64,000 nt of DNA from Candidatus Poribacteria bacterium. GTDB taxonomy: Bacteria; Poribacteria; WGA-4E; WGA-3G. The stretch spans positions 4,480,001-4,544,000 of the forward strand of contig OZ244048.1 in the NCBI GenBank assembly GCA_965215265.1, in the 5' to 3' direction. The position numbers and the translations under genes are program-made. Numbering within the stretch: the stretch's first letter is position 1; every line of letters begins with the position of its first letter. Positions 6,501 to 21,826 of the stretch are shown piece by piece. The notes under the pieces are model-generated. The model had not been told where the DNA came from and ran no database searches. It was given only the letters and a program-made list of their open reading frames with translations.

Positions 6501-7583
6501 GGTATTACAATCGCTGACGCTGACAACGACGGTAGAAACGAATTATGTATCGCTGTCCCGCCCAATTTCTATCTCATTCAACACGATGGAACGGACTACG
6601 TCCCTATCTGGCATCATTCCGCCAGCAGCACTTTAAATCCAATCGTCGCAGACCTGGACAGCGACGGCATGAATGAACTCCTATTTAGTGAAAATCAACG
6701 CTTGTCTGTTTTCAATCGAGAGCCCGCACAGCAATCATTCTTGTCTGCACCTTGGGGTATTACTGCAAAGCCTATTGACGAAACCTCCGTTCGTATTGAA
6801 TGGCACGCATCGCCCAATGCACAAACGCATACTATCTACCGTGGATGCACGGCAGAATCGCTTGTTCTGCACGCCATAACCAAAGAAGAATTAACGAAAC
6901 ATTTTATAGATACGGGGCTCAAGACCGGCGAAACCTATTGGTACGCGCTTGCGTCACAAAACTCATATGGACACCCCTCGCCGAAATCTAAACCGGTACC
7001 TGTCATGCCAACCGCGCAGCCGAGGCTGACTTCGGCAAGGTACTCGCCACCCAACCAACTCGCATTACGATTTGATAAATCGATGGAAAGCAGAGCAGCG
7101 CACCCTGGGCGGTACCTGTTGCGAAAACTTGACCCTGCAGATGTTATCAACAGCACTTTTACGCCGCAATCCGCCATTCTTGATAAGTCACGACAGCGAG
7201 TTATCCTAACATTTCCTGCGAGTACCTTTCAGTTATCCAATCGCTACCGAATTGAAACGCTACAACTGAGCGACATACACGGGGCACCCATCGCAGAAGA
7301 TGCAAAGATGCTAACGCTAACCCTCGGTACACAGACACTCACAGACGCAATTGTCTATCCAAATCCAACCCGGTGCAACCAGATTACGTTTGATAAATTA
7401 CCTGAGGGAACCCGCATCGGCATCTACGATTTAGAGGGCAACCGGATCTCCGTGCTTACCACAAAAGCCATTGATCAGGGCAGAAAGGTTTGGCATCCAA
7501 TCAATATCAGCAGTGGCATTTATATCTATGTCCTTGAAACGGATGCGGCGCGGCGCGTGGGTAAACTTGCTATAATCCGCTGA
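3594..7583 (+). CDS. Secreted S8 (subtilisin) peptidase with FG-GAP repeats, FN3-like domain and T9SS/FlgD-like C-terminal domain
   Basis: Catalytic triad motifs VVDSG, GHGTHVAG and GTSMAAP; several D-x-D-G-D-G repeats; C-terminus VYPNP…IYDLEG…SGIYIY…KLAIIR; start uncertain. Confidence 0.9.
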   Translation: MLLGVTRGLYLYNNYNNVKKTHVNLYLLLLLSAALSILGQNLRAEQVVQSPSDTTLYQTSHELIVRIRADTDEAKLRTVSAQLGASAIHPVFSPHTPAGVHPRLRRNYLIQFSKRSIIQSTRELRKKYENYQWVEAVQMNSLNQFFAETESKVTPTDPDYAKQWNLRMLNLPKAWAIEQGAPSVIIAVVDSGLDMQHPDLRSQLWQNRGEIPDNGIDDDENGYVDDVKGWDFSDAPTMQGRGDWTERDNRPDDETGHGTHVAGIIAAEPNNGIGIAGVAWNCRLMTLRAGFVAGAGAFLQSDDVAAAIVYAADNGAQIINMSWGDPVNVFIVQDAVEYAYQRGCILVAAAGNSGEASSYYPAALKSVISVAALQQNGQLWGNSHFGATVDIAAPGDEIFSTVPGGNYRTRSGTSMAAPHVAGVTALILSTNSTCPNKEILQLLTAGSLYPLDSLGGTGLLDAHIVLISSTGLIAQLDVKQGVAMQNNGAETPRSVNKIEIFGSAGGTRFVEYHLEFGKGETPDFWYPLGTSHKQPRFNALLYEWDVSYLAEGKYTLRLRVQPETGITVTDKAVVEVSRTPPAISKHESEGWFVQHRIENVIIWQTDVLTIGAIEIGAVDVLSVLQRNDLNTRIVRSDSVNTRHLIDVSDLGLPPGEYLYRLIAQNRAGIQTFDDNNGELYQITMRDDYIQQSYLTQVASLNRSLHAIKGADMNANGKIELITTKIEAVGWTPPHVFEMDTNGEYQKLFTLLEPMYPWETADTDMDGLFEILGNASAGTFLLEQAEPGKFPTERIWNVPELWGGKIAELDGDGTPEIFSRHTPTEAIAVYEAAGNNRYHNTAMLKNPTRGSNIIGTNFATGDFDGDGRTEILAGDTDADIFVYEAVGDNQYRQKWYGTLTEGIPQLFAAGDMDGDGRDEFAVGAKTWTADSDPARHHWRITLFSADTPQKNGHYRPAWTQRIRNANSGGNGITIADADNDGRNELCIAVPPNFYLIQHDGTDYVPIWHHSASSTLNPIVADLDSDGMNELLFSENQRLSVFNREPAQQSFLSAPWGITAKPIDETSVRIEWHASPNAQTHTIYRGCTAESLVLHAITKEELTKHFIDTGLKTGETYWYALASQNSYGHPSPKSKPVPVMPTAQPRLTSARYSPPNQLALRFDKSMESRAAHPGRYLLRKLDPADVINSTFTPQSAILDKSRQRVILTFPASTFQLSNRYRIETLQLSDIHGAPIAEDAKMLTLTLGTQTLTDAIVYPNPTRCNQITFDKLPEGTRIGIYDLEGNRISVLTTKAIDQGRKVWHPINISSGIYIYVLETDAARRVGKLAIIR

Positions 7584-7670: not shown

Positions 7671-7830
7671 TCACTCCGATACAAATTGGTAATTATTCTG
7701 ATATAAAGCTTCCTGTCCGGACTCCAAGGCGGATTGTTGGATTTCTCGGAGCATCTCAATATGATCTTGGAGTGCTGCTATAGGTTCAGGGTAGTCGAAT
7801 TTGGAGAGGAGTCTTAGCTGTGCTTCCAAA
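7671..7830 (-). pseudogene. C-terminal fragment of a hypothetical (partner-type) gene
   Basis: Short open frame LEAQLRLLSKFDYPEPIAALQDHIEMLREIQQSALESG…* fused directly to a promoter remnant. Confidence 0.35.
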
Positions 7831-7940
7831 TCTCATCACGTGCGCCGTTGCTAATTCAATAATGTGCAATCTCTATGACAATTCACCGCACTATAAAGTA
7901 GACATCGAAAATGCGTGAGTGCCGCAAGGCAAAACCGATT
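7824..7940 (-). repeat. Truncated copy of the cassette promoter module (degenerate sigma54 site TGTCATAGAGATTGCA at 7865-7880)
   Basis: Near-identical to 14083-14200 (TTCCAAATCTCATCAC…CTATGACAATTCACCGCACTATAAAGTAGACATCGAAAA). Confidence 0.8.
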
Positions 7941-7959
7941 CCTCCAATCGGTTACTTCC

Positions 7960-8065
7960 AGATGTACCAGGCTTCTCCTGGATAATCCACGTCGACTTGA
8001 ATCCAAGCAGTAGTTTTCAACGTGCCAGCTTCATCTTCAGACTTCCGTCTCCCGAACACCCCATG
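7960..8065 (-). pseudogene. Fragment of the secreted protein encoded at 10799-11353
   Basis: Near-identical to ~11132-11236 (HGVFGRRKxEDEAGTLKTTAWxQVDVDYPGEAWY). Confidence 0.8.
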
Positions 8066-8821
8066 CTAAGGTAGGTCTAAAAATGTGTAGGGATGGATAC
8101 CCCCTTCTTCATAGGAAAGCGCTTTTATGTCTAATGGAATGTCCGCTTCGGTGAAACGGACTCCTCTCTCCTCTTCAATAGCTCGAATCCGATCGCAAGC
8201 ATCTGGATCGCCTGACATGTCGCTGATATATTTTCTACGGCCATTGTCTGCCCATTCTACATAGACGGTGTCTGAAATCATTGGGTATACCAAGCCGTTC
8301 TCCATTATAGACCCCATAACATCTACCCCTTGATGTGCCAGTTTTATCTCAACGCGTGCCATGAGTTCATGGTTTGCGGAGATGCATGGCCATGTCTCAT
8401 CGATGGGCCATCCTGCAGGCAATTCGGGATAGGGTCCAAAGCCATAGGGCGAGACCGGTACATCAACTGAGTCTTCATCACCTGTCGCGGTAGATTTAAA
8501 ACCATCCACCGAATCTGTGTGAGCCTCCGATTCCATCGGCGGCGTGTCTGTGCCAGCTACTCCCTCGGGCGTGTCATTAGTTTCAAGAGGCATAGTTTCC
8601 GCTTGTCTAGGGACCTCGGTATCTGTCGGAACACCAACATCTTATGCGGTGCGTGTTTCTTTTTTCGTTTCTAGCTGCTGTAGAAACTGCTGGTGTTTCG
8701 CGTCCGCGTCCTGAATGGCACGGTTTTCATGCCATCTATAGAAGAGGCTTCCGCCAACCATGAGAATGCAAAAAAAGAGACAGACGAGGACCCCTTTATT
8801 TGTGAGAATGTCGCGTAGCAT
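8066..8821 (-). pseudogene. GFGPYPE-motif membrane-anchored protein, paralog 1, premature stop
   Basis: ATG at 8821 (MLRDILTNKGVLVCLFFCILMVGGSLFY…) is in frame with ORF 8066-8593; TAA at 8642-8644. Confidence 0.8.
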
Positions 8822-9071
8822 AAGTCACTCCATAGGGTTATAATTCCCCAGAAGGGAATCGGTTAAAAATCGTAAAGAGACTTCCGTTTTCAAGTTAAGG
8901 CGCTGCATTGTCAAAAGGCATCAGAAGGTTTTTCGAGAACGTGAAAATGCGTTTGTGAATACTAGCTGAGCCGGTATCAGACTCTCCATAAAGGATTGAA
9001 ATGCACCTTCACTTCATTCTCTACGTCCTAGAAGTAGTCCCGTTCCATCAATCAGCGGATGTCTTAAAATA

Positions 9072-9458
9072 TCACTGCTTGAGTTTAGCAAACTTCTTTC
9101 GTAGTGAGCGAAGGTCTAATCTATCCTGTGCTAACCCCCAGATAATCCCGAGTGCTGGACCTACCCATAAGAAACCTATTATTCCCGTGCGAGCGACAAG
9201 CACAAATCTGTCTGCCAGATCTTTGTTGTTGCCTTCATAGCTTTCAAGTTCCTGTGCGATGCTGTAGAATTCAAGTAGATCGCCATCCATTCGTTCATTT
9301 ATATAGTAACCTTCGAGAGTGTTGAGATTGTCTGTTTTAGTATAAAAGATAAAAGCGAGCATGATAAGCCATAGGTACCCCGCTAAAATGCCCAACAAAA
9401 CCCTAATAAAAAAAATTAGGAAAAACAAAGAAATAGATTTGAGTCTCTGTATGAACAT
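9072..9458 (-). CDS. Small two-TM membrane protein, hypothetical
   Basis: 128-aa ORF with two hydrophobic segments and a basic C-terminus. Confidence 0.6.
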   Translation of the reverse strand: MFIQRLKSISLFFLIFFIRVLLGILAGYLWLIMLAFIFYTKTDNLNTLEGYYINERMDGDLLEFYSIAQELESYEGNNKDLADRFVLVARTGIIGFLWVGPALGIIWGLAQDRLDLRSLRKKFAKLKQ

Positions 9459-9538
9459 AATTTTTAGATTTCAAAGAGAATTGAGAGGCGAGTCTCGGAG
9501 AGTTTTCCAGATTCTAAGTAGCCGTCGCCTCTCAGAAA

Positions 9539-9664
9539 TTAGTTAACGTCTGCGGCAGATTTATATCCAGAGTTACTCCCAGAACCAGAGTTTCTGTTAT
9601 AGGCCTAAATAGATGTTCCGCCGAGGAGGCCAAGTAATAGAGCATAAGATAGTATGTGTTTCAG
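9539..9664 (-). pseudogene. Remnant of a secreted protein gene (signal peptide paralogous to the 11353 gene)
   Basis: (C)TG KHILSYALLLGLLGGTSI*AYN versus MKRILSYVLLLALFGGTSIWAYN; TGG>TAG at 9605-9607. Confidence 0.65.
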
Positions 9665-10413
9665 GGTTTATTTCCTAAATCTAAAAAAGTGTAGGGGTCA
9701 ATACCCCCTTCTTCGTAAGAAACAATTTGAATGTCTGCCGGAATGTTCGCCTCGTTAAAATTGTCGCCTCTCGCTTCTATGATGCTTTCCGGACGATTAC
9801 AAGCCACCGGATCGCCCGCCATTTCGGAGATATATCTTTCGTCTGTCTCTTCATCCCATCTGATGTAGACTGTGTTGTCAATCGTCGGATATACCAAGCC
9901 GTCTTCCATTATGGCACCGAATGCATTTATCCCTTGGGCGATGAGTTTTATCTGGACTCGGATCATTAATTCATGATCCGGAGATTTTCGAGGCCATATA
10001 TCAGCAGGCCATCCTGCAGGCAATTCGGGATAGGGTCCAAAGCCATAGGGCGAGATGAGCGTCTCCGCCGTATCTTCTTCCGCGTCATCCGGTAAGAACG
10101 GCTCCGCGATGTCAAGGGTCTCGGGCTCGTTGGAGACCGCCTCAGGCTCATCGGACATCGGTGTGTCGGTGTTTTCCTCGGGCATGTCTACAAAACCGGG
10201 TGTCTCATCCGCTGCTGGAACGCTAACCGCTTGTGCAGGGGGCGTCTTGTTTTTATTCTCGAGTGCTTGCACGGTGCGTTTTATCGGTGACAGGTTCGCT
10301 GCCGTGGTGCGCCGGATGTGCCAACTATAAAGTTGAACGCCTCCAACAACCAGCACGAAGAAAAAGAGTCCGGCTTGAATAGCACGGCTTGACAGTAAAT
10401 CCCTCAACATCAT
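9661..10413 (-). CDS. GFGPYPE-motif membrane-anchored protein, paralog 2
   Basis: N-terminal TM, acidic Pro-rich linker, SPYGFGPYPELPAGWP motif, C-terminal YEEGGIDPYTFLDL. Confidence 0.85.
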   Translation of the reverse strand: MMLRDLLSSRAIQAGLFFFVLVVGGVQLYSWHIRRTTAANLSPIKRTVQALENKNKTPPAQAVSVPAADETPGFVDMPEENTDTPMSDEPEAVSNEPETLDIAEPFLPDDAEEDTAETLISPYGFGPYPELPAGWPADIWPRKSPDHELMIRVQIKLIAQGINAFGAIMEDGLVYPTIDNTVYIRWDEETDERYISEMAGDPVACNRPESIIEARGDNFNEANIPADIQIVSYEEGGIDPYTFLDLGNKP

Positions 10414-10695
10414 ATCACCTCTCTCATATTAGCCCTCTGTTTGTGAGATTATAGAAATGTCATATTCGATTCAAATTAGGTTTCTCTACCTTTTCCCTCG
10501 CCATCTCCGACCCCGCCGATTAACCTTTACTGCTATGTTTTGAGTTTCCCCCAACGGGTCGCGAGTTGGTTTATCGGTTGAACAGAATAAATCTTGTTTG
10601 TCCATTCAAGTATTGGCACACCGTCCGGATACATTTCTAAAATTTCTGTTGTGTCAAACCCATCCAGAGACACGGCAAAATATTGACTTTGACAC

Positions 10696-10741
10696 CTACA
10701 TCAGATATGTTGGGGAGAAGCCCCCAATATATCTGATGTAG
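10696..10741. terminator. Strong hairpin downstream of secreted-protein gene
   Basis: CTACATCAGATATGTTGGGG…CCCCAATATATCTGATGTAG. Confidence 0.6.
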
Positions 10742-10798
10742 ATAGTCCCCTTGATGGGTCCCTAGAACAACGTAGATGGAGATGTCTGTGACAGAATT

Positions 10799-11353
10799 TT
10801 AATCCACTACAGCGACGGATTGATGTACATAGGACCCACCAGACGGGGAGCGGTATTGGTCAAGACTTGCAAGCCCGTCACATCCAGAATTGTCTAGTTT
10901 AGACTCGATGTCATCATAACTAAAGTTGAGCAGCTGGCTCTCATTGCCACCGCTGTACCTGACAACGTGTGTGTCTCTTATTTTACGATTCACGTACCGC
11001 CTCCATTCTCTGCCCTCATGGAGAGGATACCGATTATTCGCTGACGCAGAGATGGAGTAGTATCCTGATTTACTCCATCCCCAACCGGTATACACTTTAG
11101 CATAGCCTTCATATTCTATGCCGTACCTCCGGATGTACCAGGCTTCTCCTGGATAATCCACGTCGACTTGAGTCCAAGCAGTGGTTTTCAACGTGCCAGC
11201 TTCATCTTCAAACTTCCGTCTCCCGAACACCCCATGCTAAGGTTCTCCCACCATCTTTATGTTATCAACCTCATTCTTCACATTATTGTAAGCCCAGATA
11301 GATGTCCCACCGAACAAGGCTAACAGTAGGACATAAGACAGTATACGTTTCAT
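10799..11353 (-). pseudogene. Secreted hypothetical protein with in-frame amber stop
   Basis: GGAGGG RBS, ATG at 11353 and a signal peptide; TAG at 11237-11239 (codon 39), then continues as ORF 10799-11230. Confidence 0.75.
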
Positions 11354-11363
11354 AATTTCCCTC

Positions 11364-12110
11364 CTAAGGTAGGTCTAAAAATGTGTAGGGATCAATACCC
11401 CCTTCTTCATAGGAAAGCACTTTTATGTCTGATGGAATGTCCGCTTCGGTGAAACGGACTCCTCTCTCCTCTTCAATAGCTCGAATCCGATCGCAAGCAT
11501 CTGGACCGCCTGACATGTCGCTGATATATTTTCTACGGCCATTGTCAGCCCATTTGACATAGACAGTGCCTAAAATCATTGGGTATACCAAACCGTTCTC
11601 CATTATGGAGCCTATAACATCTACCCCTTGATGTGCCAGTTTTATCTCAACGCGTGCCATGAGTTCATGGTCTGCGGAGATGCATGGCCATGTCTCATCG
11701 ATGGGCCATCCTGCAGGTAATTCGGGATAGGGTCCAAAGCCATAGGGCGAGATGAGCGTCTCCGCCGTATCTTCTTGCACGTCATCCGGTAAGAACGGCT
11801 CCGCGATGTCAAGGGTCTCGGGCTCGTTGGAGACCGCCGCAGGCTCATCGGACATCGGTGTGTCGGTGTTTTCCTCGGGCGTGTCTACAAAACCGGGTGT
11901 CTCATTCGCTGCTGGAACGCTAACCGCTTGTGCAGGGGGCGTCTTGTTTTCATTCTCAAGCGTTTGCACGAGGCGTTTTATCGGTGCCAGTTTCGCTGCC
12001 GTGGTGCGTCTGACGTGCCAACTATAAAGTTGAACGCCTCCAACAACCAGCACGAAGAAAAAGAGTCCGGCTTGAATAGCACGGCTTGAAAACAAATCCC
12101 TCAACATCAT
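11364..12110 (-). CDS. GFGPYPE-motif membrane-anchored protein, paralog 3 (chimeric)
   Basis: N-half nearly identical to 9661-10413, C-half nearly identical to 8066-8593. Confidence 0.85.
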   Translation of the reverse strand: MMLRDLFSSRAIQAGLFFFVLVVGGVQLYSWHVRRTTAAKLAPIKRLVQTLENENKTPPAQAVSVPAANETPGFVDTPEENTDTPMSDEPAAVSNEPETLDIAEPFLPDDVQEDTAETLISPYGFGPYPELPAGWPIDETWPCISADHELMARVEIKLAHQGVDVIGSIMENGLVYPMILGTVYVKWADNGRRKYISDMSGGPDACDRIRAIEEERGVRFTEADIPSDIKVLSYEEGGIDPYTFLDLP

Positions 12111-12390
12111 ATCACCTCTCTCATATTAGCCCTCTGTTTGTGAGATTATAGAAATGTCATATTTGACTTCAAATCTCTATGGATGAAACAGAAAAATCAA
12201 TCCATACCATCCAGCCGGAAACCGCCTGTCCTTTCTCGCGTAGGCAAGAAAGAGCGGACATTTCGTACAAGGGAGTAATCTCCCCATCCCGATACGAGCG
12301 GTGAACCCACTGGTGCAAAATTGAAGTTTCTCTCTTCTCAATTCGCAGGAGATGTAAGAAGTATAACCGCTCTCCTACATTAAATTCAAC

Positions 12391-12731
12391 TAAAAACAAC
12401 AATTCTCGTCTATCTTCTTGTTTTGCGTTCAAAACAGAAGAATATCCGAGGCAACTTAGGGCGCGTAAGGAGTTCTCGTTATCTTGTATTGTATTAGCGA
12501 GATGTCGTTGTTTCCAAATCTCATCACACGCGCCGTTGCTGATTCAATAATATGCAAGCTCTATGCCAATTCGCCTTACGATTCTGGGGACATCGCGAAC
12601 GCACCTCAATTCGGTGCGTTGGGACATCTTAAAAACCTTAGGGCCACGCAGGTTTAGACGAGATGGAGGCATCGCTAGCTGCCGTTGAAGGTTTAGAAGT
12701 GAAATCGGGCCGTTGGACGGATAAAAATGGA
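12391..12731 (-). repeat. Cassette promoter/leader module, copy
   Basis: Near-identical to ~19230-19569 and partly to 13962-14145. Confidence 0.9.
12553..12568 (-). promoter_or_regulatory. Sigma54 -24/-12 promoter
   Basis: TGGCATAGAGCTTGCA matches TGGCAC-N5-TTGCW with correct spacing. Confidence 0.75.
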
Positions 12732-12791
12732 TGCAAAGATAAGCATCATTAGAGGGAAACTGGCCATCACGGATGGGGGTTTCTACACGCG

Positions 12792-13394
12792 TTATTGGAT
12801 TGGCGGAGACTTCTTGATTGCTTTTATCTCTTCTAATCCTTTGCGGTTCGCTTCACTCGGATAGAAAAAGTATAACAATTCATGCAGAACGATCGCTTCA
12901 TCTAGAAGGATACCTTCCTCTTCTTGAGATCTATGATATAAATCAATGAATTGCTCAATTTCTGGAATCTCACCATGTTTTTCTATTAGTCCCTTTCTTA
13001 TAGCCTCTTTATTGGAGGCAGTTGTCGGAGGAAGCTCCCAGGCAGGGACGGCTGGAACCGTGTTTATCTCTTCATCCTTTGTCCACACAGGCTCCTTATC
13101 CGCTGTTAAGGCGGAGGACAATGGGGTGTCGTTGTCTGTCTCTATAGACGGTGTGTCTGTTTCCGCGGTTGATGTCCTATTCGGAGGAGGGTGTGGGGGT
13201 TCACTGATATCTTCATCATCTTCTATAAAGGCAGCATCGGGTTTTTCTGTTGTCCGCTCCTTTACAAGCGGGGTTTGCTCCTTTACAGGGACTATGGGTA
13301 AACTCTTCTCAAAATGTTTATTATCAATATGAATATAGATAGCAAAGGCACTACATAAGAGAATAATAAAAACACAAAGTAAAATGACTCGCAT
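12792..13394 (-). CDS. Membrane-anchored acidic hypothetical protein (partner-type)
   Basis: N-terminal TM, acidic/Pro/Thr linker, helical C-terminal domain. Confidence 0.75.
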   Translation of the reverse strand: MRVILLCVFIILLCSAFAIYIHIDNKHFEKSLPIVPVKEQTPLVKERTTEKPDAAFIEDDEDISEPPHPPPNRTSTAETDTPSIETDNDTPLSSALTADKEPVWTKDEEINTVPAVPAWELPPTTASNKEAIRKGLIEKHGEIPEIEQFIDLYHRSQEEEGILLDEAIVLHELLYFFYPSEANRKGLEEIKAIKKSPPIQ

Positions 13395-13568
13395 AGGATG
13401 TTTTCCTTGTAAAGCATTAATGCTCGAGGGTCAGGTAAGACACCTTGCAGAGTATCTTACCTGATCTGTTGAGGGTGATAAAATACCATCCTTGTAAAAA
13501 AACAGAGGTTGGTTGTCTGAATCGTCATCCATAGATTGTTACCAGTTCTTTTCACGCGCCTTGGGGTA

Positions 13569-13868
13569 TTAGCCCCACTGGCCCCCGCCATTACACATGG
13601 CACTATTAAATTCGTGGTAGACTACTGTCGTGTATTTAATGTCTGTACTACCATTCGCATGCCACCAATGGGTCGTCGTTGAGTTGTGAGAACCCAGATA
13701 TTGTATGTAACAGACATTGCTACTCTCATTATTACCTACATGATGCTCTTTATAATAGGTTCTAATCCGAATATGATACGTCTCCGCTTCCGCCTCCTTG
13801 ATGTTTACGATAGATGCGAATGGGATTGCGAATAAAACGATTATTAAAATGACAAAAATGCGTTTCAT
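13569..13868 (-). CDS. Small secreted His/Tyr-rich protein with two Cys
   Basis: AGGAG RBS, signal peptide ending AEA; three N-X-S/T sequons. Confidence 0.75.
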   Translation of the reverse strand: MKRIFVILIIVLFAIPFASIVNIKEAEAETYHIRIRTYYKEHHVGNNESSNVCYIQYLGSHNSTTTHWWHANGSTDIKYTTVVYHEFNSAMCNGGGQWG

Positions 13869-13915
13869 CCTTAAATTCTCCTTTTTATTCCTTGGTTTTC
13901 TCTAATATCAATTTG

Positions 13916-14200
13916 TAGGAGATGCAAATGATATTATCATATCCCCTACATGAAAGTCAATTAAAAACAACAATTCTCGTCTATCTTCTTGTTTTGCGTT
14001 CAAAACAGAAAAATATCCGAGCCAACCTAGCGCGCGTCAGGAGTTCTCGTTATCTTATATTGTACTAGCGAGATGTCGTTGTTTCCAAATCTCATCACAC
14101 GCGCCGTTGCTAATTGAATAATGTGCAATATCTATGACAATTCACCGCACTATAAAGTAGACATCGAAAACGCGTGGGCACCGCAGGGCAAACCAAATTC
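13916..14200 (-). repeat. Cassette promoter/leader module, copy (sigma54 site degenerate, TGTCATAGATATTGCA at 14124-14139)
   Basis: Matches 19187-19410 and 12391-12575. Confidence 0.85.
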
Positions 14201-14353
14201 CCAATGGCTTAGTTCTCTTGATTATACAGCCTTGAAGCCTCGGCGGTGCCACGTGGATTTAGCAGGAATGGGTAGGCGTGTCTTTTACGGGTTTGGCGAT
14301 GACCTCAAATGTGAAAAGTGTGCGAGTGAAGGTGAGAGGGTTTGCGAGCATGT

Positions 14354-16498
14354 TTATTGCCGTTGTAACTCCTTGTCTATTTCAGGGAAGCCTGTTTTGA
14401 GGTATTTTGGATGGCTTTCGATGTCCGGCGGGTAGTGTATCTCCCATATCTTCACGTCCGATTCCGCAAAATTACGGGACGGGTAAACTGGGACAAACGC
14501 ATCGCTCAATTGCTGCCGCAGAACCGAGTCCCTTGAATCCTTTTTTGTTAGCAGCACGTGTGTTGCACCGTGTGTTTTTAGGAATTCAAGCACTTCTCGC
14601 TCTTCCTGTGCATTGTGGACATGCTGGTTATAGAGATATATCCAATGCTGGAGGTAGGTGTCCTGGTCTATGATGGTTTTGACACCTGCGATGACGTTGA
14701 GTTGGCTACCATACGCCCAATGTGCGGCGACAATAGGGAGGTCTTTCTCCATCACTTTCCGCACGAGAAACGTCTTCATCCAGAGGAACGCCGCGTTGAC
14801 TCGTGTGTATCCGGGTATCGGTTTACGCATCTGTTTTGCTGCATAGAGTGAACGATAGGTGTGTGCATGTTGCAGTGGCAGGAACATCAGCAGGATGGAG
14901 AGTATCGTGGCGGTTCCTGTTTTTAGAACAATCGGTTTGAAGGTTTCCCGAAACTTATCTGTGACATACACAGAATGCCAGAGCCGTTCACTGAGCGTCT
15001 CTCCGATGCAATGAATCAACGCCGCGGCCCCAAACGCAAGGGCAACACCGATAAAGAAGTCATAGCGTTTCGCGTCACGGGAGAGTGACACCCAAACAAG
15101 AAACCAGACAGTGAAAGCAATGAAAATGATTTCTGATGAGTTGAGCTTGTTTTTACATTGCCATGCGACAAACAGGAGTGCGATGACACATCCACCCATC
15201 GCAACGCAAAAAAGGGCGTTGCCAAAAGGTTCGCCCCAGAGTTTATCTAACGGTTGCCGAAAAAAGGAAAAGGCTGTAAAGAGTGCCATCGGTATAGAGA
15301 AGATAAGCCCCAGTTTTTTCCACAGAAGCAGGGGGATAATGACGAATCCGAGACTTCCGAAAATAAAGACGGTGCCGTAGCGGGCGACCCAATACCTGAA
15401 ATGTGGTGCCCTGAGCTCTGTCATCTTTTGCATAAGTGCGTTTTGGCTCAAGGAGACGGTGGTATCGGCGAAGGTGCTGTGTTGTATGTAAATATAACTG
15501 AGTGCGAGGCTGATGCTTCCAAGTGTTAATCCAAGTGCGAGGGTGCGGGCGTGTGGGAGAAAGAAGTCTACTTTTGACAGGATCAGGTGCCGGAGTGCAC
15601 GCATCCCTAATAAAATAAGTGGGGATACAAGCACAAAAACAGCGAGGTGCTCGGAAAAGCCATATCCGCTCCGATAGGCAGGGGAAGCGAAGTAGAGCGT
15701 TGGGACAAAGCTCAACACCCAAAGCAGGTAGTGCCCTAAGCCCGCCTCTGTTTCGGAAGCGAGAAACCGCCAGAGTTCAACACAAAGCATGATGCTGAGG
15801 AATACGCCAAAACCTTCCCAAGAGATACCACCGAGGAAGACAGTAAAACCACTGGCGAGTGTCCACAATAGCTTGTGGTGAGGACGCTCAGTGCATACAG
15901 ACATCAGATAAATTATGAGAGCGAGAATGCCAATCATCAGACAAAATGCGTCTCTATCTCCGAATCCGGCGGTACTGCGTTCAATGCTGCCAGGGAGCGT
16001 TGCCAAAAGCACCCCTGCGACGCTGGAAAAGAGAAATCCGTAGGCGTAGTAAAGAAACAGGCAGAGTGCACCGAGGCCGACGCAAAAGCAGACAACAGGC
16101 ATGTAGAGGGCAACGTGATAAAGTGTGACGTTGGGAAACCCCGGGGCAATGGCTTTATGGGTGTAAGCGAGGACGTAACCGTAGAGGTTTAGCGTCTGGC
16201 CTAAATCTCTACCGAGGGGTAGCCATCGGTGCATATCCCGTTCGGGGAGCCGCCCGTGTTCGGAGACAAGTTGTGCCTGCCAATAGTAGAAATAGGCATC
16301 GGTTTCGGTGAATTGCCCGGGAGGGAATTGTTCTACGCCTTGGATGCGTATCCAGAACGCGAGCAGCACAACGCAGAGGAAAAACGCAGCCAAGCTTATG
16401 TTAAGGAGTGACGGAGTGTTTTTGGATGAAACTTTCAAGTTGTGTGGCAATCTCCAGGTCTGATTGTTTGATCCGGCGGAGTCCCTCTTCGAGTCCAT
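14354..16498 (-). CDS. STT3/PglB/AglB-like oligosaccharyltransferase (GT-C fold)
   Basis: Many TM segments; ETDAYFYY, GFGDRD (DxD), KMTE (TIxE-like), HWAYG (WWDYG-like) in the canonical order; true start may be TTG at 16438. Confidence 0.8.
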   Translation of the reverse strand: MDSKRDSAGSNNQTWRLPHNLKVSSKNTPSLLNISLAAFFLCVVLLAFWIRIQGVEQFPPGQFTETDAYFYYWQAQLVSEHGRLPERDMHRWLPLGRDLGQTLNLYGYVLAYTHKAIAPGFPNVTLYHVALYMPVVCFCVGLGALCLFLYYAYGFLFSSVAGVLLATLPGSIERSTAGFGDRDAFCLMIGILALIIYLMSVCTERPHHKLLWTLASGFTVFLGGISWEGFGVFLSIMLCVELWRFLASETEAGLGHYLLWVLSFVPTLYFASPAYRSGYGFSEHLAVFVLVSPLILLGMRALRHLILSKVDFFLPHARTLALGLTLGSISLALSYIYIQHSTFADTTVSLSQNALMQKMTELRAPHFRYWVARYGTVFIFGSLGFVIIPLLLWKKLGLIFSIPMALFTAFSFFRQPLDKLWGEPFGNALFCVAMGGCVIALLFVAWQCKNKLNSSEIIFIAFTVWFLVWVSLSRDAKRYDFFIGVALAFGAAALIHCIGETLSERLWHSVYVTDKFRETFKPIVLKTGTATILSILLMFLPLQHAHTYRSLYAAKQMRKPIPGYTRVNAAFLWMKTFLVRKVMEKDLPIVAAHWAYGSQLNVIAGVKTIIDQDTYLQHWIYLYNQHVHNAQEEREVLEFLKTHGATHVLLTKKDSRDSVLRQQLSDAFVPVYPSRNFAESDVKIWEIHYPPDIESHPKYLKTGFPEIDKELQRQ

Positions 16499-16809
16499 AT
16501 TGCTTTATCAGTTCAGCGGGTTTTCGGTACGCAGTCGCCTGTTTTTGCAGTTTTTCGTGACGTTGTCGAAATGCCGCCAACTCTTGGGGGGATCTCTCGG
16601 CGCAGTACCCGCAGTTTTTCGAGGCTGTCTTTGCGGGGGAGTGTCTGTCTGCACGAAGTCCGAACACAGCCGGTGCCGGTGCGATGACAGCCGTTGACGT
16701 GCGGTGTGTGCATTGGAAGTGTACCGGTGGCATAACTGACAAAGATTGCGATGATGCTGCCGAGTGCAGCGTGGCGATACTGTATAAAAAATGCGTGTCT
16801 TTCATTCAA
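16401..16809 (-). pseudogene. Probably frameshifted small protein (N-terminal TM; CxxC; helical C-terminus)
   Basis: A TM-like N-terminus (16513-16809 frame) and CGYC…YGLEEGLRRIKQ C-terminus (16401-16805 frame) lie in different frames. Confidence 0.45.
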
Positions 16810-16818
16810 AATTCCTTC

Positions 16819-17433
16819 TTAATCGGGCGGTGTATAGCCGTATTCGGCAAGTCGATCTAAAAAGGTTTTCCAGGCCTGGTCTAGAAGTTCAGGATTTTCG
16901 GTGACGATGGTTTGAAGTTCAGGAGGGAAGGAACTCTCCAAATTTCTATAAACTTGGTTTAGAAAAACCTTTCGTTTGGCCTCCTCAGCAAGTTTGCGGG
17001 TTGCCTCCGCATCAGATTCTTGCTCAGAAGATGTCGGAGAATCTGATGTACTTTGAGTTGTTGATGTGGAGGTTTCATTTTTTTGGGTGGAGTTGCTAAC
17101 CTCCTCAATGAAAGATCCCCTTGTCGATATCGGGGTTGTAGGAGTTTCAGAACCTGAATCTGCATTCGTAATTACCACGGTGCTTCCGGCGGTAAACCTC
17201 TTTTCTTCCACCGTGCCAGCTAGCGGCAGCGATACAGTTCCCTTATATACCTTTATCGGTTCTGTGGATTTCAGCTGAATGAGTCTAGGATAACGGCTTA
17301 AAATCACAGAGAAAGAAAGGGGAAGAAGAGAGATGTCTAACAAAATGCAAAAGTGTAGAGGTATCCGTTTTATCCGTATCCTGAACGGCGCGAGTTCGGA
17401 CTCTGGGCGATCCCGTAATTTACGTAAATCTAT
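16819..17433 (-). CDS. Partner protein B (TM + Ser/Thr-rich linker + conserved helical C-terminal domain); start codon apparently ATA
   Basis: C-terminus PPELQ…NPELLDQAWKTFL…GYTPP is paralogous to 17938-18654; AAGGAG RBS precedes ATA at 17433, in frame with ORF 16819-17343. Confidence 0.65.
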   Translation of the reverse strand: MDLRKLRDRPESELAPFRIRIKRIPLHFCILLDISLLPLSFSVILSRYPRLIQLKSTEPIKVYKGTVSLPLAGTVEEKRFTAGSTVVITNADSGSETPTTPISTRGSFIEEVSNSTQKNETSTSTTQSTSDSPTSSEQESDAEATRKLAEEAKRKVFLNQVYRNLESSFPPELQTIVTENPELLDQAWKTFLDRLAEYGYTPPD

Positions 17434-17508
17434 TTTTCTCCTTTGTAGAAGGGCAGCGAGACGTATCAGTCTGTCTCACCGCCCTCACAAAAAAACTAAA
17501 GAAAGTCA

Positions 17509-17893
17509 TTAACTACAACCACCGCTGTCGGCCCCATCGTCAAGGTGTTCCTCTAAACAGTCATTATAAGTGCACAATTTGTTCAAATATGTGGTTCCGG
17601 CAATGGCTAAATTGATTGTGGCGGCGGTAAAAGCTGCGGCTGCTATGGCTATAGCTTTTGGATTAAACGATTTTTATCGCCGCCGCGAGTATGGCTTCTG
17701 CCGTTATATAGGCTATTATTGCTGTGGCGTAACTTCCAGAAGCCTCTACCATCGCCTCATATTCGGATAGACAAATCTGCCCGTCCTCGTTTTCACAATC
17801 CGCTTCAATTAGAGTCGTGGCGGCGGTAAAAAACATGATACATAACACGAAAAAACTTATCGTGCTGAGTAGGTTTGAATTCACCTTTGGCAA
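17509..17893 (-). pseudogene. Secreted Ala-rich Cys-bracketed peptide B, frameshifted
   Basis: Removing one base in the run at 17671-17675 gives …AAAIKSFNPKAIAIAAAAFTAATINLAIAG…YNDCLEEHLDDGADSGGCS*. Confidence 0.75.
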
Positions 17894-17937
17894 TTGTATG
17901 GGCCTAAAGCCACAAGTTAATGGACCTTTCTCGGAAT

Positions 17938-18654
17938 TTACCGTGGAGGTTTATATCCTTGCTCAACGAGTAACTGTAAAAAGATTTTCCACCCTTGTTC
18001 GACAAGTTCAGGATTTTGGTTAACGTGCTCTTGAAGTCCGGGCGGTGCTTGACTAACCATTCTGTCTTTTGTCTCTCTCAAGAACGCACGTTGTTCTTGC
18101 GGAGAAAGCGTGTTTAAATGCTCCAAAATGTAAGGAACGACTTCAGCTATTGCAGCTTTAGCCTCTTCTTGTATCTCAACACTTTCTGCTAAAGCCTCGT
18201 CAATTTCCGCATTCCACGCTTCCAAAGCTGCCCGTTCAGCACCCCTTCTTTCGTTTGCAACTTCATCATCCGTGTTTGCAGCTTCATCGTCCGCGTTTAC
18301 AGATTCGTTTGGAATTGTTGGTGTCCTTTCACTATCCGTTTCTCGCGATTCCTGATTTAAAGGCATTTCTACGTCTTCTGTTTCTCGCGATTCCTGATTT
18401 AAAGGCATTTCTACGTCTTCTGTTTCGATGAGAACCTCTTCACTTGAATTTACCGATGTTTCCTCATCCACATTCGGCGGGGATTTTTGAATTATCTTAT
18501 ACACCTTTCTCGGAGCCCTTGTTTGGTTTCTCTTTTCGAGATGACCTTGAATGAAAATCCAACTCATTGTGATTAACATAACGGGAGTTAGAATTATGAA
18601 TACAGGTCTCCATTTTTTTTTAATTCTTTTTTCGTATTCCTGACTAGTCTCCAT
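17938..18654 (-). CDS. Partner protein A (TM + acidic linker + helical C-terminal domain)
   Basis: Intact 238-aa ORF with RBS; paralog of the 16819 gene. Confidence 0.8.
   Translation of the reverse strand: METSQEYEKRIKKKWRPVFIILTPVMLITMSWIFIQGHLEKRNQTRAPRKVYKIIQKSPPNVDEETSVNSSEEVLIETEDVEMPLNQESRETEDVEMPLNQESRETDSERTPTIPNESVNADDEAANTDDEVANERRGAERAALEAWNAEIDEALAESVEIQEEAKAAIAEVVPYILEHLNTLSPQEQRAFLRETKDRMVSQAPPGLQEHVNQNPELVEQGWKIFLQLLVEQGYKPPR
18338..18426. repeat. 42-bp perfect tandem duplication within partner A
   Basis: Encodes ETEDVEMPLNQESR twice. Confidence 0.9.
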
Positions 18655-18746
18655 GCTTATGATTCCTTTCTAAATTTTAGGTTGAACGTATTCTCTCTAC
18701 CTAGAGTAGAGAGAATACTCTAGATGGTTTTCTAGCGTGAGGGTTG

Positions 18747-19166
18747 TTAAAATGTGACTCTAAGTATTAGAATCACAGCCCCAGAATCATCTACCTCGGG
18801 CGGATCGTGTTCGTTTTCGCAGTCATAAAGAGCTCGGCGTGCAGTTTCAAGTTTCGCAGACTCATTAGCAAGATGTGCCACGGCGAGTGCTTTGGCTGCA
18901 GCAAGCCCGGCTACTGCCCACCACTGCCCAGATGCTATAGCCGCCATGAGTGCTACATGCGCAGCTAGCACGTACCCTCCCGCGATATATACAGCGTTTT
19001 CTGCATCCTTTACTGCTTGTCTTTCAGTTTCGCAATGCTCCGCAATCACAGAGCCTATGAGAAACGCCATCGTAAATAGAACAATCAGGCTAATTACCGC
19101 AAGCAGGTTTGAGTTCACCTTTGGCAATTGTATGGGTCTAAGTACCCAAGTTAATGTGTTTGTCAT
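18747..19166 (-). CDS. Secreted Ala-rich Cys-bracketed peptide A (C-terminus probably frameshifted)
   Basis: AGGAG RBS; signal peptide shared with peptide B; one extra G in the run at 18779-18782 would give DDSGGCDSNT* ending at 18760. Confidence 0.75.
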   Translation of the reverse strand: MTNTLTWVLRPIQLPKVNSNLLAVISLIVLFTMAFLIGSVIAEHCETERQAVKDAENAVYIAGGYVLAAHVALMAAIASGQWWAVAGLAAAKALAVAHLANESAKLETARRALYDCENEHDPPEVDDSGAVILILRVTF

Positions 19167-19186
19167 GAGATTCTCCTATTATTTTC

Positions 19187-19569
19187 TAGGAGATACGAAT
19201 GATATTATCATATCCCCTACATGAAAGTCAACAAAAGACTACAATTCTTATCTTCTTGTTTTGCGTTCAAAACAGAAGAATATCCGAGGCAACCTAGCAC
19301 GCGTAAGGAGTTCTCGTTATCTTATATTGTACTAGCGAGATGTCGTTGTTTCCAAATCTCATCACACGCGCCGTTGCTGATTCAATAATAAGCAATCTCT
19401 ATGCCAATTTGCCTTACGATTCTGGGGACATCGCGAACGCACCTCAATTCGGTGCGTTGGGACATCTTAAAAACCTTAGGGCCACGCAGGTTTATACGAG
19501 ATGGAGGCATCGTTAGCTGCCGTTGAAAGTTTAGAAGTGAAATCGGTCCGTTGGACGGATAAAAATGGA
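19187..19569 (-). repeat. Cassette promoter/leader module, most complete copy
   Basis: Matches 12391-12731 and 13916-14145. Confidence 0.9.
19391..19406 (-). promoter_or_regulatory. Sigma54 -24/-12 promoter
   Basis: TGGCATAGAGATTGCT. Confidence 0.75.
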
Positions 19570-19571
19570 AA

Positions 19572-19673
19572 CCCGCAAAAATTGTAGGGTGTCCGGTAAG
19601 AATAGGTGTCCATTCTGCAAAAATTGTAGGTTATTTTGCGAGAAGGGGATGTGTGGCCCGCAAAAATTGCTGG
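19572..19673. promoter_or_regulatory. Three phased direct repeats GCAAAAATTG(TAGG), candidate enhancer (UAS)
   Basis: Copies start at 19575, 19617 and 19660 (42-43 bp spacing) between divergent sigma54 promoters. Confidence 0.5.
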
Positions 19674-19964
19674 TTTATGCGAGACTTTTGGGCGGTTCAC
19701 TGTTTTTTCCAAGGTAAAATCACTTCTGAAGGTCTCATCTGTTGTGTTGGGTTACAGGATCGGGCAAGGCGGCTTGGTCGTGCAGACAGAAGTTGAGTTT
19801 CCTATTCAATCAGAAGCCACCGTGGAAAAGACTTTCCGCAGCGTTTGTGAGACATGAGATGCTCTGCTCCCTTAGGAAATTAACGCTCAGTGTAATACTA
19901 ATATCAGATATGCTTCTCTCGGCGTTAGAGAGAGAAGTTCTCTATTAAACTCGGCGACAAGATA

Positions 19965-19980
19965 TGGCACAAAATTTGCT
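19965..19980 (+). promoter_or_regulatory. Sigma54 -24/-12 promoter of the activator gene
   Basis: TGGCACAAAATTTGCT, a full consensus match ~100 bp upstream of the ATG. Confidence 0.8.
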
Positions 19981-20078
19981 AATTAACAATGAAGAGCCCT
20001 ATGAATGGAGCTCGGGAGCTTGTTGCCACTGTAGAAAAACGACACAAATCCGAGTAATCTGAATATGGGAGGAGGATT

Positions 20079-21209
20079 ATGAATGAATCTACCGTTACCC
20101 TTAAATCTCCACAGATGCGAGCGGTTTACCGCGCCATCCAGCGGGTTGCACAGACGAACGTCTCGGTTCTCATTACAGGTGAAACCGGGGTCGGTAAAGA
20201 GATAATTGCACAAGCGATTCATAACCAGAGTTTGAGAAGGGACAAACCGTTTAAAGTGGTGAATTGCGGTGCGTTTCACCGGGAGCTTCTGTCTAGTGAG
20301 CTCTTTGGGCACGAGAAGGGTGCGTTTACCGGGGCGACTGCCCAAAGACGTGGCATGTTGGAACAGGCAGACGGCGGCACGTTGTTTCTGGATGAGGTAG
20401 GCGAAATGTTTCCTGAACTGCAGCCCATGTTCCTCCGCACCTTAGAAACACAGACGTTTACGCGGCTCGGTGGAAATAGAGAGATTAGAGTGGATGTCCG
20501 TGTTATCGCGGCGACAAATAGTGATATGGAGACAGCGATTTATAACAAGCAGTTCCGGGAAGATCTTTACTTTCGGCTCAATGGATTTCAGATTCATATC
20601 CCGCCGTTGTGGGAACGTCCTGAGGATATTCCGCCACTGGTTTCTACTTTCATTTCTCAATTAAGTATGAAATATGGGAAGAAAGTGGTGAGGATGACCC
20701 CGGAAGCCCTCTATTTCCTGAAACAGGCGGCATGGCCGGGCAATATCCGTGAACTCAAAAATGTGATTGGCAGAGCTATCCTTGAAACCGACGCATCCGT
20801 TGTCGGAATCTCGGAGGTCTCTTTGGCACTATTTGGAAAGCCAGCGACAGGCATACTCCTATCTCAGGTAGGTTCTTCTGTTAAGGAAGCGTTCTACCCT
20901 CTTCTGACGCATATCTCCTTGACAGAGTTTATCCAGATTTTTGCGGGGATTTCGCCCGATATATGGAAGTTAGTTCCTAAGCAGGTGCAACGCGGCGTTA
21001 TCCGTGAAGCATCTTTCTATTTATCGCGACTTTTGGATGGCCATCAAGGCCCTATCCGTCTTGATAGCATGACGAAAGACGAGATTTTATCTGTGGTTGC
21101 TGGGCAGCGCCTAGAAGCATGTGGCTCCTTAGCGCGAGCAGCAGCGTCGCTGGATGTAGATGTTCGGACACTCAAGGAATATCTAGCAGTAGGCGAAGCA
21201 GAGGCATAA
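20079..21209 (+). CDS. Sigma54-dependent enhancer-binding protein lacking an N-terminal sensor domain
   Basis: GETGVGKE Walker A, GAFTGA loop, LFLDEVGE, FREDLYFRLN, WPGNIREL, C-terminal HTH-like segment. Confidence 0.92.
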   Translation: MNESTVTLKSPQMRAVYRAIQRVAQTNVSVLITGETGVGKEIIAQAIHNQSLRRDKPFKVVNCGAFHRELLSSELFGHEKGAFTGATAQRRGMLEQADGGTLFLDEVGEMFPELQPMFLRTLETQTFTRLGGNREIRVDVRVIAATNSDMETAIYNKQFREDLYFRLNGFQIHIPPLWERPEDIPPLVSTFISQLSMKYGKKVVRMTPEALYFLKQAAWPGNIRELKNVIGRAILETDASVVGISEVSLALFGKPATGILLSQVGSSVKEAFYPLLTHISLTEFIQIFAGISPDIWKLVPKQVQRGVIREASFYLSRLLDGHQGPIRLDSMTKDEILSVVAGQRLEACGSLARAAASLDVDVRTLKEYLAVGEAEA

Positions 21210-21373
21210 GACCTAATTATCGTAATTTCTCGGTGCTAAGACACGTTCTAGAGGGACTTGACACTAATTTGAATGCTATTATTTTCATCAGGCAGTTTTT
21301 CCTCGCCTGCCTCGCGTCCAATTTCATCAACATGCGGCAACAGTGGAGTGGAGACGAAACCCCGAAGCTGCAG

Positions 21374-21826
21374 TCAGGAATCGTCTCTACCAGAGGAACA
21401 TTTTTTTAAATTGTCTGCGAGCCGAGTGATGATTTCCGACTCTAATTGCCCGATTGCTCCGGAATTTTCGTTGTCCGCTATTGTATTTAGGAGCATCTCG
21501 ATATCTTGTTGCTCCATTAACGTGAATGGCTTATGCTGTTGCATAATTCGGATTAATCGCGGTAACACATAAGTTCTGAAAAGAGGTTCTTCCCAGCAGA
21601 GCTCGTCGGTAATTCTGCAGAGCTCCTCGGTGCACATTTTCACTTGCCTCTCCAAGTTTTCCAGGTCACGATGTTTCTCGGTGTCCAGATTTTTGGAAAT
21701 GTCGGCACGTTGGTGCCCTATCTCTCGTGCCGTGAGGATTTTGTCTTCCATGACCATTAAGGCTTCTACCTTTTCTATAAAAGTATCGGCACGATTTTTG
21801 GCCTTGATAATGTTGCTTTCACTCAC
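21374..21826 (-). CDS. Hypothetical helical protein
   Basis: 150-aa ORF with GAGGT RBS and GTG start. Confidence 0.55.
   Translation of the reverse strand: MSESNIIKAKNRADTFIEKVEALMVMEDKILTAREIGHQRADISKNLDTEKHRDLENLERQVKMCTEELCRITDELCWEEPLFRTYVLPRLIRIMQQHKPFTLMEQQDIEMLLNTIADNENSGAIGQLESEIITRLADNLKKCSSGRDDS

Follow-up and report, generated by a model that had tools for sequence, protein, structure and literature searches.

A candidate export-and-modify cassette in Poribacteria: exported mini-proteins, anchored partners and an STT3-like enzyme

What does an STT3-like gene do in the middle of an array of small exported proteins? This question is raised by the window, a 64,000-nucleotide stretch of a Candidatus Poribacteria bacterium (assembly GCA_965215265.1, contig OZ244048.1, positions 4,480,001 to 4,544,000 of the forward strand; positions below are those of the window). 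An earlier reading of the letters alone, hereafter the original prediction, had described minus-strand cassettes of small secreted proteins (here cargos) and acidic, transmembrane (TM)-anchored proteins (here partners), together with an STT3-like enzyme and a divergent sigma54 activator. Inspection of the window sequence and its open reading frames (ORFs) found a matching layout at about 7.8-21.2 kb. The locus is one copy of a Poribacteria cassette, and the system is real, widespread in one lineage and apparently undescribed. On its working our judgement is evenly balanced: it may be a modular export-and-modify cassette, in which partner-held exported mini-proteins would be glycosylated on an S-G-x-[C/N] tail.

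Distribution and linkage of the cassette

A profile of the STT3-like enzyme matched 92 of 112 genomes in the family of the window, copy numbers reaching at least ten, as well as 937 protein clusters, and all 42 enzyme loci from named genomes belonged to Poribacteria. The partner families GFGPYPE, HGxIPE and NPEL were found in 23/31, 17/31 and 32/112 genomes, respectively, and every named GFGPYPE match was from Poribacteria. Within the phylum, 32 of 176 genomes had hairpin cargos, and these genomes spanned two families. The usual gene order was a regulator, a small exported cargo, one or more anchored partners, often a CxCC membrane protein, the enzyme and accessory genes; near the enzyme in the 42 loci, the latter encoded a CDP-alcohol phosphatidyltransferase (14), a methyltransferase (7), a GspC-like protein (7) and a GT2 protein (6). 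Of the 64 held-out STT3 loci that had 3 kb or more of upstream sequence, 44 held a known partner, 26 a CxCC gene and 56 a small exported ORF, the last figure speaking less firmly for the cassette since it was taken without a random-gene control and some of the ORFs counted are spurious.

Counted from the partners, an STT3 piece lay within 5 kb downstream of 8/23 NPEL matches, 6 of the 150 GFGPYPE matches listed (the best 150 of 180) and 6 of 93 HGxIPE matches (of 128, repeat matches within one gene having been removed by eye). Hence the linkage is one-way: the enzyme points to the cassette, but a partner does not point to the enzyme, and an obligatory partner-STT3 link is not borne out.

The STT3-like enzyme and the S-G-x-C tail

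By fold and catalytic residues the enzyme stands in the STT3 lineage, as the original prediction had it. With its AlphaFold2 (AF2) model (predicted local distance difference test, pLDDT, 82; predicted template modelling score 0.85), the best Foldseek matches were STT3 and AglB (E 5e-12 to 5e-11, template modelling scores 0.5-0.6), followed by weaker matches to PglB (8e-8) and DPY19 (3e-6); a GT-C membrane domain is joined to an STT3-type C-terminal domain. The protein has 13 hydrophobic segments and a profile match to STT3B (E 1e-6), scored 42.7 against TIGR04154 (cut-off 450), and belongs to a family in which Pfam STT3 matched 16 of 33 members. Its start position is uncertain, a public gene call being 671 residues long. 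Residues D67, R174, D181, D183 and E361 were invariant in 33/33 enzymes and correspond to D56, R147, D154, D156 and E319 of PglB, an equivalence drawn from motifs and a hidden Markov model alignment rather than from superposition; the catalytic roles of these PglB residues are described in passages of PMC7226087.

According to the same passages (PMC7226087), the WWD motif binds the hydroxyl of the +2 Ser/Thr. This motif is absent here: among 102 readable cassette enzymes the first position was Trp in none and the third position was Asp in two, and the window enzyme carries HWAYG at this place. As it fails the WWD test, the enzyme is not classed as an N-oligosaccharyltransferase (N-OST). In a tree of 83 full-length representatives, whose root was chosen on an archaeal protein, WWD was found in 0/18 of the window's clade (17 representatives and the window, support 0.999). 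On deeper branches, WWDYG was present in a 911-residue copy of this genome and in proteins assigned by name to Woesearchaeota and Nanoarchaeia, and loss of WWD was seen on further branches too. The closest outside relatives that carry a name are STT3 proteins of DPANN archaea, and an archaeal origin of the enzyme is suggested. It may be added that the 911-residue copy (G000:C1:2425229-2430799) lies behind an exported protein in which no N-X-S/T was seen by eye.

A candidate substrate was offered by a short motif, S-G-[S/G]-C, which was noticed post hoc in 6/18 discovery cargo families against 0.06 expected. In 59 held-out cargos it occurred 10 times against 0.6 expected, falling in 3 of 31 held-out families. 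As a doubled tail unit, with two Cys five residues apart, it ends 40 of the 64 distinct hairpin proteins.

The tail went together with the enzyme. At loci with enough sequence, STT3 lay downstream of 17/20 tailed hairpins and of 2/14 untailed ones, both of these exceptions bearing degenerate tails. When only the set selected by hairpin was considered, the enzyme was downstream in 12/12 tailed cases (one tail degenerate) versus 0/5 whole untailed genes. Three tailed hairpins had no enzyme in cis, and their genomes carry one elsewhere; genome G002, with untailed hairpins, gave no enzyme match. Within the enzyme subclade of the window (support 0.994), 14/21 loci had the motif on unrelated cargo families, against 4/75 loci outside it, although the filter used overlooked two loci outside and one inside.

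Several observations weigh against glycosylation of the tail by this enzyme. Tailed hairpins also occur with enzymes outside the subclade (L169 and L174, which the filter overlooked). The link between tail and enzyme follows kinship, untailed hairpins came from two genera only, and some of the tailed loci were located via the enzyme. Partners are mostly found without the enzyme, and the tail array was present in only 16/95 enzyme loci. Because most cargos behind the enzyme are untailed, the tail cannot be the sole substrate of the enzyme family, and the remaining subclades must recognise something different or be active elsewhere. No intact cargo of the window has an in-frame tail. WWD has been lost many times in the longer subfamily as well, which may mean relaxed selection, and no donor genes were found in the window and no donor pathway was identified.

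The Cys tail might instead be a disulfide, metal-binding or redox tag that is recognised by a component of secretion or by the CxCC membrane protein, with the enzyme acting elsewhere or transferring a non-glycan head group. We regard this as unlikely. The spacing of the two Cys speaks for such a tag, as do the CxCC gene at 26/64 held-out loci and in three cassettes that have a tailed hairpin but no enzyme in cis, the CDP-alcohol phosphatidyltransferase and GspC-like genes near the enzyme (14/42 and 7/42 loci) and the untailed cargos of most enzyme loci. However, the CxCC gene was present at only 5/16 array loci, the tail is concentrated in one enzyme subclade, and an exchange of Cys for Asn, up to an all-Asn tail, removes any role of the thiol.

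The same exchange bears on the acceptor residue. At the two Cys positions of the 40 doubled tails we counted C 73 times, N 6 times and D once, the single D-bearing tail adjoining a broken enzyme. One hairpin (P0136) has an all-Asn tail of three N-G-S units, and in the homologous cargos of L051 and L217 C-S-S-E-S repeats are exchanged in register for N-S-T-E-S repeats. Since Cys is exchanged with Asn, the normal oligosaccharyltransferase acceptor, although their codons are two base changes apart, Cys is suggested as acceptor. A +2 Ser/Thr is not kept (9/40 after the last tail unit; 4/18 sites in other cargo families), which would agree with the loss of WWD and with a recognition shifted to the upstream S-G; Ser as acceptor agrees with that loss equally well. 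Provided that the tail is modified at all, the Cys/Asn at the end of the unit is probably the acceptor, with Ser a serious competitor.

The export-and-modify reading takes its most specific form in a proposal that we put forward only tentatively: an STT3/AglB-derived enzyme, probably archaeal and without a +2 pocket, may attach a lipid-linked glycan to the Cys (Asn in some alleles) of an S-G-x-[C/N] tag. If true, this would be S-glycosylation by an oligosaccharyltransferase, and the cargos of these sponge symbionts would form a new class of exported mini-proteins, modified in the periplasm and provided with cognate anchored partners. A WWD-less STT3-type enzyme thereby gains a candidate substrate, a 5-residue tag, on a partner-held cargo; should Cys be the acceptor, a new oligosaccharyltransferase chemistry and a short, portable glycoengineering tag would follow.

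A different account of the enzyme, that of an ordinary or relaxed N-OST which glycosylates N-X-S/T on cargos and partner linkers while the Cys tail is unrelated, appears very doubtful. It is close to the original prediction, which had pointed to sequons in most exported ORFs. All nine triplets named there are present, and the window proteins hold 15 N-X-S/T against 7.7 expected (p=0.002 by block shuffle, with a single GFGPYPE copy included). GFGPYPE partners, which are related copies, hold 14 against 7.9, some tails are perfect N-X-S arrays (P0136, L031, L037), and the enzyme retains the second Trp and the acids that activate Asn. However, the control motif N-x-x-S/T is also high in the window (12), and WWD is found in 0/102 enzymes. 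Furthermore, N-X-S/T was not enriched in the 18 discovery cargo families (11 vs 14.4 expected), the 59 held-out cargos (47 vs 41.5), the HGxIPE partners (14 vs 20.8) or the exported proteins of the same genome (ratio 0.94). The sequons stand as described, but their glycosylation was not supported.

Two other candidate modifications were rejected. C-X-S/T as a general Cys sequon gave 39 against 43.9 expected in held-out cargos, its +2 Ser/Thr being mostly a by-product of repeats, and the C-mannosylation motif of Trp, W-x-x-W/C, was not enriched in cargos (4 vs 2.0 expected, p=0.15).

Cargo-partner pairs and comparison with known systems

The pairing of cargos and partners by family, as the original prediction supposed, was recovered: 30/35 hairpin cargos had an NPEL partner within 1.2 kb. 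By inspection, without counts, His-rich cargos stood mostly with HGxIPE partners, and GFGPYPE was often followed by a beta-rich protein. For one of these three types, co-folding of the window's hairpin cargo 1 with the NPEL domain of 17938..18654 predicted a complex with a mark of 0.90 versus 0.01 for the best control (contact agreement between runs at least 97%, pLDDT 91/89). A mark of 0.90 was attained by 116/157 solved complexes and 2/215 mismatches, rates that hold only approximately with author-built alignments. The reliance on such alignments, and the possibility that helical hairpins pack promiscuously, count against the predicted binding. The modelled interface covers the hydrophobic arm, residues 43-60.

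Partners exceed cargos in number and stand in tandem, as orphan immunity genes likewise do. The GFGPYPE domain was also seen in other proteins (P0318, P0319, P0325), fused to tetratricopeptide repeat (TPR) lipoproteins in several cases and to a BlaR1-type M56 peptidase in two; fusions to TPR lipoproteins and an M56 sensor would be consistent with a binding module. Its AF2 model (pLDDT 93.7) found nothing at E<=0.001 with Foldseek, a best Z of 2.8 among 48,161 chains with VIA-align and a blank in the Atlas, results that show neither a new fold nor an absence of relatives. For the hairpin cargo, the Atlas search returned one match at 0.75 and generic helical pairs. Profiles of partners and cargos against PDB sequences matched only designed helical repeats or exceeded E 0.005, with no natural solved relative, and no toxin domain was matched in Pfam, NCBIfam, natural PDB entries or the Atlas. 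On the whole, the view of a polymorphic exported system diversified by cassette shuffling was supported.

Two side observations concern the cargos. At L293:4758-5126 and L046:8508-8912 the leader of the hairpin family is followed by another mature region, which points to swapping of leaders. A further cargo family of about 85 residues (L055-L080, L224-L240), with its own partner set, has six Cys in a symmetric spacing of 6-10-loop-10-6, which suggests a helical hairpin with nested disulfides and a Ser/Gly/Asn loop; such a six-Cys hairpin resembles glycocins.

Compared with the known systems, the cassette resembles in its working either glycocin or bacteriocin clusters that include immunity or secretion units assisted by a foldase, but it could be placed in none of these classes. 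STT3, AglB and PglB (GT66, GT-C; Pfam PF02516, TIGR04154) are alike in fold, in the 13 hydrophobic segments and in the catalytic acids. In contrast to these housekeeping proteins, the cassette enzyme lacks the WWD pocket, is multicopy, patchy and often fragmented, and lies behind small cargo genes. DPY19, a C-mannosyltransferase, provides an STT3-like fold acting on a non-Asn acceptor, although its Foldseek match (E 3e-6) was weaker than those of STT3 and AglB.

In glycocins, S-/O-glycosylated bacteriocins such as sublancin, glycocin F and thurandacin, the enzymes are soluble nucleotide-sugar transferases, and the peptides are exported by a dedicated leader-cleaving transporter. They too are small, Cys-rich exported peptides encoded next to a dedicated glycosyltransferase, whereas the present cassette has a membrane GT-C enzyme, signal peptides, mature parts of 55-150 residues with several folds, and anchored partners. 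No glycocin-type soluble glycosyltransferase or exporter was found in the window (GT2 stands near 6/42 relatives, downstream of the enzyme), and there was no NCBIfam or Pfam match. An S-linked sugar on Cys is itself known from glycocins, according to passages of PMC9877059.

With polymorphic toxin-immunity loci, for which orphan immunity arrays are known, the cassette shares cognate pairs in fixed order, a surplus of partners, tandem orphans and variable parts swapped behind a common leader (L293); a cognate pair in fixed order with orphan partners is indeed present. It differs in the absence of any known toxin or immunity domain and of a delivery machine, and in the inclusion of a modifying enzyme. 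The lipase-specific foldase (Lif) consists of a membrane anchor, a flexible linker and a helical domain that embraces a cognate secreted protein encoded next door, and the genes of pilin oligosaccharyltransferases such as TfpO/PglS sit beside their own substrate. The partners resemble Lif in anchor, linker and helical domain, and GspC-like genes occur in some cassettes; however, there was no sequence match to either (Pfam, PDB sequences), the cargos are neither lipases nor recognisable pilins, and the pilin enzymes belong to another family.

None of the systems compared accounts for the locus, in line with the original prediction that it is not a named one. The enzyme alone is a variant within the known STT3 family, whereas the whole cassette matches no described system among those compared. 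Searches of the literature on STT3 or oligosaccharyltransferases in Poribacteria gave no account of it, the 2019 Poribacteria pangenome paper lying outside this coverage. The terms searched for do not occur in PMC8546597, and passages of PMC5087111 and 10.1101/2023.06.09.544420 do not mention it, although the last paper has unexplained expressed Poribacteria clusters.

The following course of events is proposed. A dedicated activator, a sigma54-dependent one here and an extracytoplasmic function (ECF) sigma factor in many relatives, would transcribe a small, hypervariable protein with a signal peptide. After export, the family-matched partner, tethered to the inner membrane on a long acidic linker, would bind the cargo as in the model, and in the hairpin family it may wrap the hydrophobic, Ala-rich arm. 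While the cargo is held, the STT3-like enzyme would move a lipid-linked sugar onto the S-G-x-[C/N] tail, and would do so without recognising Ser/Thr at +2. Duplication and recombination would make the cassettes diverse; leaders, regulators and partners would be swapped, and copies would decay, as that of the window does. As to the role, our first choice, held at less than even confidence, is membrane-active antagonism in which the partner serves as sheath or immunity; chaperoned secretion of host-facing proteins is a substantial possibility, and ligand-receptor signalling is improbable. In any case, hundreds of diverse exported mini-proteins, annotated as hypothetical, are present in an abundant uncultured sponge symbiont and may mediate competition or host contact.

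Layout, promoters and decay of the window copy

The features of the window copy are as follows.

20079..21209, plus strand: sigma54 activator (bacterial enhancer-binding protein), divergent and sensor-less; Pfam PF00158, E 7e-69, domain from residue 8
19965..19979, plus strand: sigma54 -24/-12 site 5' of the activator
19167..19406, minus strand: promoter module M1, intact sigma54 site 19392-19406 and hairpin-rich leader of about 220 nt
18747..19166, minus strand: hairpin cargo 1, signal peptide and Cys-clamped, Ala-rich helical hairpin; S-G-G-C tail out of frame
17938..18654, minus strand: NPEL partner, TM anchor, acidic linker and helical domain
17509..17920, minus strand: hairpin cargo 2, broken, without start and with a frameshift near 17673; S-G-G-C tail at the end
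16819..17433, minus strand: second NPEL partner, ATA at the start codon position
16401..16805, minus strand: 'MKDTH' small membrane protein of the CxCC family (C-G-Y-C here), internal out-of-frame stretch
14354..16498, minus strand: STT3/AglB-like GT-C enzyme, intact, WWD replaced by HWA
13869..14139, minus strand: promoter module M3 and leader, site 14125-14139, -24 GG changed to GT
13569..13868, minus strand: His-rich cargo, intact, three N-X-S/T, without S-G-x-C tail
12792..13394, minus strand: HGxIPE partner, TM anchor, acidic linker and helical domain
12330..12722, minus strand: promoter module M2 and leader, intact site 12554-12568, no cargo gene behind
11364..12110, minus strand: GFGPYPE partner, intact; sigma70-like site at 12145-12172
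10799..11353, minus strand: beta-rich cargo, in-frame stop at 11237
9661..10413, minus strand: GFGPYPE partner, intact, then cargo signal-peptide remnant 9605-9664
9072..9458, minus strand: small membrane protein
8066..8821, minus strand: GFGPYPE partner split by an in-frame stop at 8642, then cargo remnant 7952-8065
7821..7958, minus strand: promoter module M4, partial, site 7866-7880, -24 GG changed to GT, no gene behind

The six anchored partners in three families were all located (three GFGPYPE, two NPEL, one HGxIPE). Small secreted genes or remnants are present as predicted, but they number six instead of five and most are broken, the sole fully intact one being the His-rich cargo, for which no clear homologue was found in the fetched loci. 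Two belonging genes had been overlooked, namely 'MKDTH' (16401-16805) and the small membrane gene at 9072-9458. The homologues of the latter and of the beta-rich cargo in L189 both come after a GFGPYPE gene, and the L098 homologue of the second NPEL partner starts with Met, unlike the ATA of the window copy.

Four minus-strand copies of the common promoter module were located, as had been claimed. GG is kept at 19392-19406 and 12554-12568, while GT stands at -24 in 14125-14139 and 7866-7880; GT in place of the -24 GG should disable a sigma54 site. The features of a sigma54-dependent operon are thus present, with -24 GG/-12 GC sites and an enhancer-binding protein with an intact AAA+ core. The AAA domain of this divergent activator starts at residue 8 with no sensor domain before it, and all NifA/NtrC-like profile matches were under the cut-off. 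With a sigma54 site of its own, the activator could possibly activate itself. Two further module copies with intact sites were found elsewhere in the genome (G000:C1:3925000-3933600). One of them precedes a Cys-rich exported peptide ending in S-G-S-C-G, behind which lie a WD40 protein and then an ArnT/PMT-like GT-C gene (family assigned by eye) in place of the STT3-like gene.

The leader that separates the sigma54 site from the start codon (19164-19382, minus strand) folds far better than shuffled sequences (z -4.68). Copies of it occur behind each window promoter, six in the genome; the sequence of the last stem varies among copies, with pairing retained by eye. No Rfam match was obtained, and a search of 111 relatives did not recover the leader DNA. 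In relatives a strict sigma54 site was present at 11/35 loci, with an activator nearby in 11/11 of these versus 0/24 loci without a site, which supports the link between activator and cassette. An ECF-sigma cluster was found in 22/42 enzyme loci; sigma54 control as a defining trait was not supported, and the regulator is exchangeable: sigma54 and ECF control are interchangeable across cassettes.

The copy in the window is in decay. Over 14558-18367 and 18397-19227, 0 differences from the window were seen in contigs of runs X2 and X3, which come from one study, and over 14131-18115 and 10684-11546 there were 0 differences in those of run X5 (another study). Because contigs of these other runs are identical over most of the broken stretches, the breaks are real and assembly errors are ruled out as the source of the frameshifts. 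This decay raises the question of whether the array is mostly a product of neutral amplification in a symbiont genome, in which repeats drive duplication and decay and linkage is hitch-hiking. Most window cargos are broken, the 13 STT3-like matches in the genome are mostly fragments, orphan partners are many, and some promoter copies have no gene behind them, all as such amplification would have it. Nevertheless, we consider it quite improbable: the catalytic residues are invariant among enzymes at 45-68% identity, the enzyme gene is found in 92/112 genomes, cargo-partner pairing is kept across genera and families, and cargos that otherwise diverge share a conserved short motif.

Some minor features of the window remain to be listed. 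The ORF at 21374-21826 (minus strand, 150 residues) has no homologue in Pfam, NCBIfam, the genome or the fetched loci, and its membership in the array is unsupported. A 20-base near-perfect inverted repeat lies at 10696-10741, 3' of the beta-rich cargo, and is not in the terminator scan list; the linker of the NPEL partner contains a 42-base tandem duplication at 18335-18418. An 18-base element with TATAAT at 22155-22172 matches the upstream regions of two GFGPYPE genes at 17/18 positions. Finally, an S8 peptidase at 3594-7583 (plus strand) carries FG-GAP repeats and a C-terminal sorting domain of the type IX secretion system type (Pfam 29.8 vs cut-off 27).

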